Assembly (NCBI GenBank): GCA_041663045.1
Contig: JBAZRH010000002.1
Span: 73,179 to 113,698, forward strand
DNA length: 40,520 nt
Reading direction: 5' to 3'
From: Minisyncoccota bacterium
GTDB lineage: Bacteria; Patescibacteriota; Minisyncoccia; Phycocordibacterales; GWA1-40-21
The position numbers and the translations under genes are program-made. Of the stretch, positions 33,977-36,619 are shown one piece after another; within the stretch, counting starts at the first letter, position 1, and every line of letters begins with the position of its first letter. The notes under the pieces were generated by a model. That model made no database searches. It worked only from the letters and a program-made list of their open reading frames with translations, and had not been told where the DNA came from.

Positions 33977-34009
33977 GTCTTTGCGAGTTAATCCGAAGCA
34001 ATCCAGTCT
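33977..34009 (+). repeat. REP-like element (GTC..TTGCG...GCAATCCAG type), left DGR border
   Basis: gtctttgcgagttaatccgaagcaatccagtct, directly adjacent to the RT stop. Confidence 0.5.
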
Positions 34010-35058
34010 CAATCCCCCAGTATTTTATCTATCTGCCTTTTTATCCCCTCTCCATTACAATACTTAAGCATACCCAAATAAGATTGGACGGCCTGTTTAA
34101 AATACTTTTCATCAACCAAACCTTTATCAAAATCCTCCTTTAATTTAACTAGCTTATTCAAAACCCTTTTCTTCGTCTTCGTCCTCAAAACCCTATAATG
34201 CGGAAGAGAAACATACCCTAGAAAATCCGTCCCTGAGATAATCTTACGCAAACTTATTTTTCTAGGATGTAGCTCTACCAAGAGTTTTTCTCTGAAAAAA
34301 TCTTGTATTCCTACAAGGCAACTTTTCAAAAACTCAAGATTATCAGCTAAAATAACAAAATCATCGCAATATCTAATATAATATCTGGCCTTAAGTCTAT
34401 GTTTTATAAACTGATCTAATTCGTTTAGATAGATATTTGAAAAAAGCTGGCTTGTAACATTACCAAGTGGCAAACCTTTGCCTTTTTCCTTTTCAAAAGA
34501 GCCGACAATCTTCTGAATTAAGTTCAATAAATCTCTATCCCCCACTTTTTTGCATATCAAATCCAGAAGTATTTTGTGGTCTATATTGTCAAAAAATTTT
34601 CTTATATCGCATTTCAATACATATCCGCTTCTCGTATAATTCCCAGAAACTTTCCTCGCAAACTCCTCAAATCTTTTAACCCCCGCATGCGTTCCCTTCA
34701 TCTCTCGTGAAGAATATGAATCAAAAATAAAAATAGGATTGAAAATCTGATATAATGCCTGATGCACGGCTTGATATAAAACCATATCCCTTATATCCGC
34801 CTTGTGTATTTCGCGAAGTTTTGGATCGCAAACTTTGAAAGCAAAGTATGGTCTGGGCTTCCACTGAAAAGTGGACAGCTCGCTATGCAAAGAAAAAATA
34901 TTTTCTTCAAGATTCAATTCAAAATCAGCCACTTCTTTTTTTGACCTTTTGCCCTTAGAAAACTTCCGCCAAGCCTTTAATAAATTTTTAATAGATATTA
35001 CATCACAAAAACTACAACTATGACGCCCCCCCCCCGCACGTGTTCGCAAAACTCCCAT
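34009..35058 (-). CDS. DGR reverse transcriptase
   Basis: ISIKNLLKAW..F.KGKR, CDIRKFFDNIDH, GLPLGNVTSQLFSNIYLNELD (GxxxSQ), YIRYCDDFVI, DFLGY; no endonuclease or maturase tail. Confidence 0.93.
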   Translation of the reverse strand: MGVLRTRAGGGRHSCSFCDVISIKNLLKAWRKFSKGKRSKKEVADFELNLEENIFSLHSELSTFQWKPRPYFAFKVCDPKLREIHKADIRDMVLYQAVHQALYQIFNPIFIFDSYSSREMKGTHAGVKRFEEFARKVSGNYTRSGYVLKCDIRKFFDNIDHKILLDLICKKVGDRDLLNLIQKIVGSFEKEKGKGLPLGNVTSQLFSNIYLNELDQFIKHRLKARYYIRYCDDFVILADNLEFLKSCLVGIQDFFREKLLVELHPRKISLRKIISGTDFLGYVSLPHYRVLRTKTKKRVLNKLVKLKEDFDKGLVDEKYFKQAVQSYLGMLKYCNGEGIKRQIDKILGD

Positions 35059-35392
35059 TATTCATAATATAAGAATACTACACAAAGATTTATATGTCTT
35101 TGGCCAAAAGCTCTCAAAAAGAGATAAACTTGGTATTCACGCAATCATTGAAAGAGTTTGTATGGATATTTTATCGTTATCCATAGAATCAGCTTATAAA
35201 AAAGAAGCTTTGAAAATACCTCCATTGGTATTACTTAGGATAAAAGTCGGTCTCCTGCAAAATCTTATACGAACAGAAAATGAGCTTAAAATTTTGGATG
35301 ACGAGACATATTTGCGATTTTCTGCGCAAATAGTGGAAATATCAAAAATGGCTAGTGGGTGGATAAACTATATGAACGCAAAACCTGCCTAA
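35020..35392 (+). pseudogene. avd: Avd-like four-helix-bundle accessory protein, frameshifted in a C10 run as assembled
   Basis: The frame upstream of ATG 35162 is open back to 35024 (VRKTPIIHNIRILHKDLYVFGQKLSKRDKLGIHAIIERVCMDILSL...LLQNLIR...EISKMASGWINY), an Avd-like pattern. ATG 35020 joins this frame only if the C run (35026-35035) is 9 or 12 long. Confidence 0.75.
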
Positions 35393-35405
35393 GGCAGGTT
35401 TTGCG
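35377..35405. other. 13-bp perfect hairpin just 3' of the TR; the avd stop codon is its loop
   Basis: cgcaaaacctgcc-taa-ggcaggttttgcg. Confidence 0.75.
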
Positions 35406-35408
35406 AGA

Positions 35409-35523
35409 AATTTCCTCACGCGCACCCATGTTGTCGTTCTCGTAGTCGGCGTTGTTCCAGTTGAACCTGACATTGCGATTGTTCGGGTTCCAGTTGCCGT
35501 AAGCCACCTTGCCGTCCGAAAGG
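35409..35523 (-). ncRNA. DGR template repeat (TR)
   Basis: 115-bp match to 35776-35890 with 14 mismatches, 13 at TR adenines (minus strand); 10 AAY codons in the VR frame; 34 adenines by my count. Confidence 0.93.
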
Positions 35524-35697
35524 GTATTTTGATATTTTCCGTCCGTATCACCGAAAGTCTTTTACAAGACCTTCTGAGTTTTCCCGCGGTAGAGCGAGCA
35601 TAGTATAAAAAATATCAAGCAATTTCTTTTTGTTGGCAAACCGTCATCTCTGTTTTAACAAAGCCGGCTTAACAGCCATTTTTATTATATAAAAAAA

Positions 35698-35731
35698 CCG
35701 GCACAAAGCAACTTTCATTGCTTTGTGCCGG
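35698..35731 (-). terminator. 14-bp hairpin downstream of the VR: terminator and/or DGR homing cruciform
   Basis: ccggcacaaagcaa-ctttca-ttgctttgtgccgg, followed by a T7 run on the minus strand, about 44 nt past the VR end. Confidence 0.75.
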
Positions 35732-35754
35732 AGTAAGGGTGAAGGGAGAGAGAA

Positions 35755-36507
35755 TTAAGGTTTAAGGGGAACCTCAATTGCCTCACGCGCACCCATGCCG
35801 TCGATCTCGCCGCCGGCGTTGATCCAGTGGAACCTGACATTGCGATCGGACGGGTTCCAGTAGCCGTAAGCCACCTCGCCGTCCGAAAGGCGTTCCGTCG
35901 GGAACCATGTCCAAGTCTCCGGATCAAGGTACTGATTCGTGGCTTCGTAGTATTGTCCGAATGCCAGAGCGTATACCTTGAGGGGAAGCCAGAGACGACC
36001 GGTTTTCACCAGAGTGTTTGGTGACTTGCCCATTGTATTCTTCGTTGGACGCGGATTGCGTTCAATGAGGAACAGTCTGGGTTTGTCGGAAGCTTCGTGA
36101 TATTTATACTTATTCACGTCCACTTCTTCGTACGCCTTGGACAGACCGTATTTCTGCAGGCTGTTCACGGCTTGACGGTTGTCCACGCCGGATGGTTGGA
36201 GAATCGCGATGACTTCCTTCCACGGCAGGACTTCCGGCAAAGCAAACATCTCTGCGATATTCGCTTTGTAGCCGAAGAGCTTATCTGCTTGGTGTTCGGC
36301 GAGACCGATGGCGAAGGAGAGGTTGTTGCCGACCGCGACTTGTGTCGCAATATCAACAAACTTCCCTTCAATCGCCAACTGAAGATGCTTACTAAGCATC
36401 TCCGGATCATACGGATACCCGCCCCGTTGAAGATACAGTTGACGCTGAATCTCCGCGAACTGGTTTCCGAGCTTGACCGACATTTCGCCTGTGACAATTG
36501 TTGCCAT
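35755..36507 (-). CDS. DGR target protein with a C-terminal variable region (likely CLec-type fold), no signal peptide
   Basis: The C-terminus LSDGEVAYGYWNPSDRNVRFHWINAGGEIDGMGAREA is encoded by the VR; AAGGA upstream of the ATG. Confidence 0.88.
   Translation of the reverse strand: MATIVTGEMSVKLGNQFAEIQRQLYLQRGGYPYDPEMLSKHLQLAIEGKFVDIATQVAVGNNLSFAIGLAEHQADKLFGYKANIAEMFALPEVLPWKEVIAILQPSGVDNRQAVNSLQKYGLSKAYEEVDVNKYKYHEASDKPRLFLIERNPRPTKNTMGKSPNTLVKTGRLWLPLKVYALAFGQYYEATNQYLDPETWTWFPTERLSDGEVAYGYWNPSDRNVRFHWINAGGEIDGMGAREAIEVPLKP
35776..35890 (-). repeat. DGR variable repeat (VR) ending in a GC-rich GGGTGCGCGTGAGG element
   Basis: Direct alignment with the TR at offset 367. Confidence 0.93.
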
Positions 36508-36560: not shown

Positions 36561-36619
36561 TTTGCCACAGAGGAAAATTTTGAGTTTTGATTCTTTTCAA
36601 AATTTTCCTCTGTGGCAAA
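36561..36619. promoter_or_regulatory. 23-bp perfect inverted repeat in the predicted 5' UTR of the DGR target
   Basis: tttgccacagaggaaaattttga-N13-tcaaaattttcctctgtggcaaa. Confidence 0.6.

Follow-up and report, generated by a model that had tools for sequence, protein, structure and literature searches.

A conserved G/C tract in the avd/RT overlap of an Architecture B3 DGR as a probable slippage switch in Patescibacteria

The locus described here resembles the BPP-1 DGR (mtd-avd-TR-Sp-brt; PMC6182149, 10.1101/2023.10.23.563531) in its adenine-specific TR-to-VR differences, its [ILV]GxxxSQ RT and its four-helix Avd. In BPP-1, cis-primed cDNA synthesis needs a spacer of 140 nt, with the primer at Sp A56, a stop duplex at Sp59-81 and a bRT-binding stem-loop at Sp95-139 (Handa et al., PMC6182149; 10.1101/2023.10.23.563531). 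A further stem-loop of 11 bp, at Sp3-33 of the DGR RNA, is bound by all five Avd protomers (10.1101/2023.10.23.563531), and Handa et al. (10.1101/2023.10.23.563531) predicted that 207 of 278 DGRs, CPR ones among them, have such a stem-loop shortly after TR. Unlike BPP-1, the present locus has its avd beyond TR and read from the other strand, so that the sequence 3' of TR is antisense-avd where BPP-1 has a non-coding spacer. It also differs in that RT and avd overlap at their 5' ends and that the triloop of the hairpin following TR is the avd stop codon.

The CPR/Patescibacteria DGRs of Wu et al. 2018 (Nucleic Acids Res 46:11, PMC5758913), 90% of whose CPR set have Architecture B3, TR-(avd)-RT, are like this locus in order, orientation and host group, and we see no difference in layout. 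That paper (PMC5758913) makes no mention of an avd/RT coding overlap, a homopolymer or antisense effects. Likeness of another kind exists to the SSR contingency loci of Campylobacter jejuni, Neisseria and Haemophilus (PMC6321876, PMC5084427), where, as in the present group of DGRs, a poly-G/C run of 8-11 near the start codon varies in length between near-identical genomes and shifts the ORF frame while the rest of the gene stays intact. In our case, however, one tract on both strands would gate two overlapping divergent genes, and the gated function would be targeted hypermutation rather than surface structure or restriction-modification. It is this C10/G10 tract in the avd/RT overlap that is absent from the literature we searched, where it is undescribed among reports on DGRs with homopolymers or phase variation. 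Taken as a whole, we read the locus as a B3-type DGR with an Avd-binding-type hairpin containing the avd stop and a conserved hypermutable tract that frames both genes, its mutator being most likely off in this genome, and we assign this reading a probability of about 0.7.

Within the window, by which we mean the whole 40.5-kb stretch of DNA analysed, the target gene with VR, TR and RT (from 35058) follow one another on the minus strand, and avd lies on the plus strand between TR and RT, converging on the TR unit and diverging from RT. The initial annotation had proposed this order and these strands, and every element is present at the position it gave. Its further claim that the layout is unusual has to be withdrawn, since TR, a reverse-strand avd, an RT on the TR strand and no other accessory gene make up the published Architecture B3. 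An opposite-strand avd, head to head with RT, also occurs in 84 of 116 related loci that bear Avd (the 32 others, more distant, are co-oriented), and the order VR, TR, (avd), RT is kept among relatives. By the annotation's own reckoning a layout that is common and already described is not unusual; the element is a regular DGR of the published CPR/Patescibacteria type, Architecture B3, and the layout itself is nothing new.

TR (35409..35523, minus strand) and VR (35776..35890, minus strand) are defined by their mutual alignment, which runs over 115 bp (35523..35409 against 35890..35776) with 14 mismatches, of which 13 fall on adenines of TR; no second VR was found within the 40.5-kb window. VR lies in the C-terminal part, at the 3' end, of the DGR target gene, an ORF of 250 aa (35755..36507, minus strand) whose protein has no Pfam or NCBIfam match. 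The TR segment 35429-35414, the last 16 nt before GAAATT, is GC-rich, the same as in VR, and IMH-like. RTs of the DGR clade are recognized by a palm [ILV]GxxxSQ and a catalytic YxDD; the RT as assembled, an ORF at 34009..35058 (minus strand) matching RVT_1 (E 3.5e-20), has LGNVTSQ at residue 198 and YCDD at residue 230. Both hallmarks of a DGR are present, namely differences at TR adenines with VR inside a coding target gene, and an adjacent DGR-clade RT with its motifs. The closest relatives of this RT, at up to 60% identity, come from Patescibacteria MAGs from groundwater, and all relatives found with it adjoin TR/VR pairs. The metagenome scan gave relatives of at most 60% identity, and exact-protein look-ups for PolA, RT and NusA found no near-identical copies of the window.

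The target gene ends in an intrinsic terminator called by a terminator scan (35698..35731, minus strand; 15-bp stem then T7), which folds at -26.5 kcal/mol (z -8.2). Between it and TR lies a putative promoter-like site, TTGCCA-17-GATATT (35611..35639, minus strand), from a consensus scan only, which would give TR its own short transcription unit. A putative leader element of the TR RNA (35548..35571, minus strand) comprises a hairpin, GGTCTT-GTAA-AAGACT (35571..35556), then CGGTGA (35553..35548); in an RNAalifold analysis of 21 relatives the hairpin has 5 pairs, 4 with compensatory changes, followed by an invariant GTG. No Rfam family matches anywhere in the window.

Three unpaired nucleotides (35406-35408) separate TR from a 13-bp hairpin at 35377..35405, or Sp4-32 of the TR RNA, with stems 35377-35389 and 35393-35405. 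The description of this hairpin in the initial annotation, 13 bp starting 4 nt past TR with the avd TAA as its loop, proved correct: the stem is perfect, without a bulge, and the 3-nt loop (UUA, 35390-35392) is the avd stop codon. The last avd codons and the stop are built into the hairpin because avd enters from the other side. It folds at -22.7 to -23.8 kcal/mol (z -5 to -6), and none of 200 shuffles folds as well. As a peculiarity of this locus it did not withstand comparison, given that BPP-1 has such an Avd-binding stem-loop and that the 207 predicted cases extend to CPR. A hairpin directly after TR is also found in 41 unique relatives, with unrelated stem sequences, and the avd stop lies in its loop in 27 and in its stem in 4. 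Avd-binding stem-loops have about 9-11 bp and lie within a few nucleotides downstream of TR; the hairpin here, with 13 bp, agrees, starting 3-4 nt after TR as does that of BPP-1 (Sp4-32 and Sp3-33, respectively). The tetraloop cap and flipped-out bases typical of published Avd-binding stem-loops are absent from it. From this comparison it probably corresponds, in this clade, to the Avd-binding stem-loop at the spacer 5' end of the DGR RNA, and Avd would be expected to bind it.

The hairpin may also stop transcription. It is even conceivable, though on balance we think it unlikely, that it is only an intrinsic terminator, bidirectional and serving both avd and the TR unit that converges on it, and takes no part in priming or in binding Avd. 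Many relatives' hairpins have a GC-rich core between an A-run and a T-run, in 26 of 41 loci the 8 nt past the stem on the TR strand include at least 4 T, and the target gene's own terminator together with the promoter-like site before TR means that TR could be a self-contained short RNA. However, the scan for rho-independent terminators (GC-rich stem, at least 5 T in 8 nt) made no call for the hairpin in this window, where 4 T follow the GC core, and in position and stem length it agrees with the Avd-binding stem-loop that experiments have defined in BPP-1. Moreover, a structured element directly after TR is present in co-oriented B1 relatives too, where no gene converges on that place.

The initial annotation had proposed that the TR transcript reads through the hairpin into antisense-avd, and that this functional spacer pairs with avd mRNA and so regulates Avd synthesis and/or retrohoming. 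We regard this model as improbable, even though the geometry of TR and opposite-strand avd is real and conserved in relatives. A search for RNA runs containing the locus returned none. The claim that the spacer is the antisense of avd can be kept for the 3' part of avd, provided that the requirement of about 140 nt in BPP-1 holds here, and BPP-1-type spacer elements, if conserved, must then fall antisense to avd codons about 75-122. This locus does have a 6-bp match between Sp48-53 (CACCCA) and TR TGGGTG (35428-35423), just 3' of the last mutated adenines, but the pairing is not conserved in relatives. The best duplexes of the TR 3' end with the spacer were no better than shuffles (46 loci, mean z 0.0), and the same was true of the sequence upstream of TR (mean z -0.3). 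On the TR strand, at least 4 of the 8 nt beyond the hairpin are T in 26 of 41 loci, so that many TR transcripts may end there.

The tests of spacer pairing and structure have limited power on protein-coding antisense sequence. RNAalifold gave no consensus structure in Sp1-150, a weak test as MAFFT misaligns the hairpins, and no long-range helix with covariation that would join the TR leader to the spacer; nor did the duplex/shuffle and RNAalifold tests detect conserved equivalents of the BPP-1 primer duplex, cPRT Stop or bRT-binding stem-loop. Three candidates were set aside: primer-type pairing of the TR 3' end with the spacer, whose duplex energies do not surpass those of shuffles; cPRT-Stop-type pairing of the TR leader with the spacer, not above shuffles and with no covarying helix; and a near-palindromic GAARTTTC motif common to the TR end and the spacer, which, like the 6-bp match, is without statistical support. 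For B3 elements the question is whether the BPP-1-type RNA elements 3' of TR are dual-coded in antisense-avd, or whether a shorter template RNA ends at the hairpin.

The avd gene occupies 35020..35392 (plus strand), with its ATG at 35020, a body frame of 35024-35389 and TAA at 35390-35392. The frame 35024-35392 matches bAvd PF22296 with E 1.5e-7 over profile positions 5-106 of 107; its score of 32.3 bits falls short of the gathering cut-off of 40. It also matches NCBIfam DivGenRetAVD (NF033474; E 1e-8), with 35.4 bits against a cut-off of 80. The aligned relatives match PF22296 in 16/16 cases (best 8.8e-19), and the Avd profile compared with PDB finds 4dwl (Bbp7, E 0.024) and, end to end, 8ub7 (Avd). 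Weighing the window scores, the relatives and the PDB matches together, we treat the plus-strand ORF as Avd, in line with its first description as Avd-like.

The ATGs at 35020 (avd) and 35058 (RT) give the 39-bp overlap originally reported. More generally, avd and RT overlap head to head and antisense over ~40-46 bp in a codon-aligned manner, avd reading Pro and RT reading Gly at the C/G run. Within the overlap the two start codons face His codons on the opposite strand: the avd ATG faces one of RT, and the conserved RT start codon (M-N-N...; 35063..35065, minus strand) faces the conserved one in the Avd motif P-I-[IV]-H. The assembled RT start at 35058 is a second, non-conserved ATG that happens to be in frame at C10.

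The C10/G10 homopolymer, our candidate slippage switch (35026..35035), lies within this overlap, 6 nt downstream of the avd ATG and, on the other strand, 27 nt downstream of the conserved RT ATG, and is the only G/C run of at least 8 in the 40.5-kb window. Because of this run the avd ATG at 35020 is out of frame (+1) with the Avd body, and the word 'repaired', which the initial annotation used of the ORF, was justified. At C10 both conserved ATGs are out of frame and open peptides of only 15 aa each, that from the RT ATG ending at TAG 35020..35018; with one C fewer both are in frame. The longest canonical avd ORF as assembled has only 76 aa, starting at 35162. As in a contingency locus, a hypermutable repeat lies near the 5' coding region and its length sets the frame. 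We considered and rejected a 'toggle' model in which the tract alternates between RT-on and avd-on, as both conserved starts share one register. An alternative genetic code, with TGA as a residue and avd extended upstream, was also dismissed: under table 11 the neighbouring genes show nothing unusual, and the frame upstream of avd is the antisense of RT.

To place the tract in context we surveyed 72 unique avd/RT junctions, counting as a repeat any G/C run of at least 7 or a GA repeat. A repeat is present at 54 of the 72 and puts 37 of these out of register (27 at +1, 10 at +2), leaving 17 in frame; among the loci with a long overlap and no repeat, 11 of 12 are in register (Fisher p = 1.7e-4). 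None of the 37 out-of-register loci has an in-frame avd ATG, 15 of them keep an in-frame secondary RT ATG, and both genes possess an ATG in 15 of the 17 in-register loci. At each locus the offset in frame is consistent between RT and avd. The +1 excess (27 of 54) is unlike a neutral random walk, and could point to recoding (transcription or translation slippage) over DNA-level switching.

A frame break of this kind might be an artefact, with the homopolymer miscalled in sequencing or assembly, or a sign of decay, with avd a dead pseudogene. G/C homopolymers of 9-11 are difficult for short-read chemistry, several relatives come from low-coverage contigs, and one (L030) has a scaffold gap beside the tract. 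At the present locus, the Logan contigs of the source run, the only run whose contigs contain the locus, break off and resume precisely at the tract, and these breaks fit length heterogeneity but also poor sequencing of G/C runs. Against miscalling, however, coverage of the locus in the source run is 25-31x, each of the two flanking contigs has ten C's, independent assemblies of other strains repeat one length (L014 = L101 = L126, L010 = L087, L015 = L102), and 11 of the 12 loci without a repeat are in frame. Random error would also not conserve a G/C run at one site in 54 diverged loci, when the 372,680 nt of these loci hold only one other run of at least 8. As for decay, the repeat is in every case the sole site of the lesion; RT ORFs are intact in 35/35 out-of-register loci (at least 313 aa), as are the Avd bodies, and TR/VR adenine mismatch counts are like those of in-register loci. 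Artefact and decay together seem to us very unlikely explanations.

The tract also varies in length within one strain. The relatives L026, L120 and L121 have G9, G10 and G8, respectively, with flanks 99.9-100% identical over 800 nt. Among Logan contigs of independent runs compared with L120, four (X4, X5, X8 and X10) span the tract with G10 and X7 spans it with G9 and no other difference, while those of X6, X9 and X11 break at the tract. In this lineage a single strain has G8, G9 and G10 in different samples, covering all three registers, and in these relatives the tract shows the length polymorphism among otherwise identical genomes that marks a contingency locus.

A third possibility accepts the tract as real but fixed out of frame in the DNA, Avd and RT being made through RNA polymerase slippage or ribosomal +1/-1 frameshifting (CCC-C / GGG-G) at constitutively low expression, with no heritable switch. 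Long homopolymers are RNA polymerase slippage sites, and CCC-C is prone to +1 frameshifting. Such recoding would account for the 37 of 54 loci that are out of register with intact bodies and in-register-like TR/VR adenine mismatches, for the over-represented +1 register (27/54), and for replicate assemblies that repeat the same out-of-frame length. Yet +1 and +2 registers both occur, so that no single recoding direction serves all loci. Furthermore, the DNA length itself differs between samples of one strain across all three registers, in-frame versions exist, and loci without a repeat are in frame (11/12). We consider recoding an unlikely substitute for switching in the DNA.

It seems probable from these comparisons that the tract is a slippage switch on the mutator, and that avd is off in this genome. 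Tract length sets the reading frame of avd and RT at once; at C10 avd is not translatable from its own start codon and RT only from the secondary ATG, so the mutator is most likely switched off, or nearly so, and loss of one base from the tract would switch it on. We infer that slippage is used here as a heritable switch. Extended to the large clade of B3 Patescibacteria DGRs, with odds that we put at about even, targeted hypermutation would be phase variable through one G/C tract read on both strands, stochastically and heritably, most cells, the consensus of this genome among them, being off and rare slippage variants diversifying the target.

If true, a programmed hypermutation system would be under the control of a second, cruder mutational switch, which would go some way towards accounting for how bearers of tiny genomes keep down the cost of a mutator. 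The frameshifted look of many CPR DGR genes in assemblies would be explained as well; such genes may have been mis-annotated as pseudogenes or given wrong starts.

A complete DGR lies on the minus strand at 34009-36507 of the window, and all of its elements were found where the initial annotation had placed them. The VR (35890..35776) sits at the end of a 250-aa target ORF (36507..35755), which has a strong terminator at 35731..35698 according to both folding and a terminator scan. The 115-bp alignment of the TR (35523..35409) to the VR contains 14 mismatches, 13 of them opposite TR adenines, and no second VR was found within the 40.5-kb window. The RT ORF (35058..34009) matches RVT_1 and contains the motifs LGNVTSQ and YCDD. 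On the plus strand, the frame of the avd body (35024-35392) matches both the bAvd profile PF22296, over nearly its full length (E 1.5e-7), and NCBIfam DivGenRetAVD (E 1e-8). PF22296 is matched by 16/16 aligned Avd relatives, whose own profile aligns from end to end with Avd structures solved for the Bordetella phage (4dwl, 8ub7). Between the ATG of avd (35020) and the one annotated for RT (35058), the two genes overlap by 39 bp, and the avd ORF does need the repair anticipated for it, since a 1-base shift separates the frame of its ATG from that of the body. A 23-bp inverted repeat without mismatches and with a 13-nt loop (36561-36619: TTTGCCACAGAGGAAAATTTTGA ... TCAAAATTTTCCTCTGTGGCAAA) lies some 55 nt ahead of the target gene; it overlaps a promoter-like site (36618..36590) and could be an operator or terminator.

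The antisense position of avd between TR and RT had been put forward as unusual. A search of genomes and metagenomes with the RT as query gave 160 related loci, in which avd was placed with an Avd HMM derived from 16 relatives. The gene lies head to head with RT on the opposite strand in 84 loci, each of Patescibacteria/groundwater type; it is upstream and co-oriented in 32 others, which are more distant and come from Firmicutes and other groups. The gene order VR, TR, (avd), RT recurs throughout, and exactly this layout was named 'Architecture B3, TR-(avd)-RT' by Wu et al. 2018 (PMC5758913). The arrangement is therefore common and described: the observation is right, but the biology was known before.

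This layout had also led to the proposal that the TR RNA spacer, as the antisense of the avd mRNA, could pair with it and regulate retrohoming. The BPP-1 DGR RNA needs 140 nt of spacer, comprising a primer at A56, a stop duplex and a bRT-binding stem-loop (Handa et al., PMC6182149; 10.1101/2023.10.23.563531). As the 140-nt stretch 3' of the TR in B3 elements is antisense to the last ~45 avd codons, the proposed geometry is right, if the BPP-1 mechanism is conserved. Conserved RNA function in the antisense-avd spacer was looked for by duplex energies and RNAalifold, and none was found: duplexes of the spacer with the TR 3' end (mean z 0.0) or the TR leader (mean z -0.3) were no better than shuffles, and RNAalifold returned no consensus structure in the first 150 nt, a result that weighs neither for nor against the proposed antisense regulation. 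One copy of the near-palindrome GAA(A/G)TTTC, encoding E-[IV]-S of the target, is placed at the 3' end of the TR/VR (35409-35417, minus-strand RNA); another lies ~65-75 nt downstream (35334-35343), antisense to the conserved E-I-S-K codons of Avd. By sequence these copies could pair with each other; their duplex energy is not above chance.

A perfect 13-bp hairpin (35377-35405; fold z -5 to -6) does lie beyond the TR, three unpaired nt from its end, with the avd TAA (35390-35392) as its loop. Hairpins start 0-20 nt past the TR in 41 unique relatives, and their stem sequences are unrelated, so it is the structure that is conserved and not the sequence. In 27 of these relatives the loop contains the avd stop codon, and in 4 the stem does; a stop codon in the loop is thus characteristic of the clade. 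Handa et al. (10.1101/2023.10.23.563531) predicted stem-loops that bind Avd immediately 3' of the TR in 207/278 DGRs, CPR included. From its position 4-32 nt past the TR, the window hairpin would most simply belong to this known class of DGR RNA element, and the avd stop codon inside the loop is its clade-specific twist. The element also shows terminator-like traits (an A-run before the stem, and at least 4 T in the next 8 nt in 26/41 loci); the window hairpin was not called by the terminator scan. The co-oriented (B1) relatives differ from B3 in having a larger, different conserved structure directly 3' of the TR. Within the first ~70 nt after the TR, a ~60-nt structured element (ATTACTCCC ... 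inner hairpin ... GGGAGTAAAGGAATCGGATTCC) is common to B1 Firmicutes loci (L035, L037, L039, L043, L044, L046, L050-L052, L055, L148 and L150) and absent from B3 loci, and is presumably their spacer RNA core.

The leader upstream of the TR is non-coding and contains a covarying hairpin (35571..35556, minus strand; GGTCTT-GTAA-AAGACT), identified with RNAalifold in 21 relatives, with compensatory changes in 4/5 pairs and a GNRA-type GTAA loop. CGGTGA then follows, its GTG invariant in relatives, and the whole element (35548-35571) probably has a function within the B3 DGR RNA. With a promoter-like site preceding it (35639..35611, minus strand, by scan), leader, TR and hairpin may together make up one compact unit.

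What stands out at this locus, and appears not to have been described before, is a hypervariable C/G tract that breaks avd. In the literature searched, papers on DGRs with homopolymer or phase-variable features gave no description of it, and Wu et al. 2018 (PMC5758913) mention neither an avd/RT overlap nor a homopolymer. Here the tract is C10 (35026-35035, plus strand), located after the avd ATG-ACG in the avd/RT overlap, and is the sole G/C run of at least 8 in a window of 38.5% GC. Comparison of relatives gives a conserved RT start, M-N-N, whose ATG (35065..35063) is antisense to the His codon of the P-I-[IV]-H motif conserved in Avd. The reverse also holds, with a His codon of RT opposite the avd ATG, so that the codons of the two ORFs line up over the length of the tract, read as PPP for avd and as GGG for RT. 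With ten C's, translation from either conserved ATG stops after 15 aa; removing a single C puts each ATG in frame with the body of its gene. Here the RT is translatable only from a second ATG (35058), in another frame, which arises from the antisense of Avd Pro-Ile codons.

Of 72 unique B3 junctions, 54 have a repeat at the tract site, defined as a G/C run of at least 7 or a GA repeat. The register is in frame in 17 of these, +1 in 27 and +2 in 10, as against 11/12 in register for long-overlap loci without a repeat (Fisher p = 1.7e-4). These loci, 372,680 nt in all, contain just one other G/C run of at least 8. Both genes have an in-frame ATG in 15/17 in-register loci. An in-frame avd ATG is found in 0/37 out-of-register loci, 15 of which, all +1, retain an in-frame RT ATG, as in the window. 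Decay as the origin of the frame break is disfavoured, since out-of-register loci keep RT ORFs of at least 313 aa (35/35 scorable), complete Avd bodies and TR/VR adenine mismatch counts equal to those of in-register loci; they are not decaying. Dinucleotide repeats, (AG)9 and (GA)5, lie beside G9 at the site in one locus (L023:3930-3981), and (GA)9 replaces the G run in another (L122), so more than one kind of simple repeat is tolerated by, or attracted to, the site.

Tract length varies between near-identical loci. Three assemblies (L026, L120 and L121) with 800-nt flanks 99.9-100% identical have G9, G10 and G8, respectively. Among Logan contigs of eight sequencing runs compared with L120, four have G10 (X4, X5, X8, X10), X7 has G9 and no other difference, and three (X6, X9, X11) break exactly at the tract. 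A sequencing artefact is also disfavoured as the source of the frame break: independent assemblies of other strains reproduce the same tract length, which argues against random miscalling. Source-run contigs of the window (25-31x) stop and start precisely at the tract without any of them spanning it, which is suggestive only as a sign of length heterogeneity. Two low-depth contigs of run X1 (2.9x, 2.2x) match the RT 5' region (34996-35036) as far as the C tract, at 2-4 differences, before diverging; the sample seems also to contain further related DGRs that share this tract. In a subclade with the RT ATG downstream of the tract, the L016/L105 and L104 junctions have 99.9% identical flanks but differ in carrying G10 or G9. 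A single additional A ~20 nt upstream in the G9 copy (GCAATAAGG vs GCAAATAAGG) leaves the register unchanged, and this is possibly a compensating indel.

The excess of +1 registers hints at recoding by transcriptional or ribosomal slippage, a rival explanation for the tract. Our best reading of these sequences is a slipped-strand contingency switch, in which the C/G tract would gate avd. In the window's subclade it would also gate the canonical RT start, and the window consensus, C10, would represent the avd-off state.
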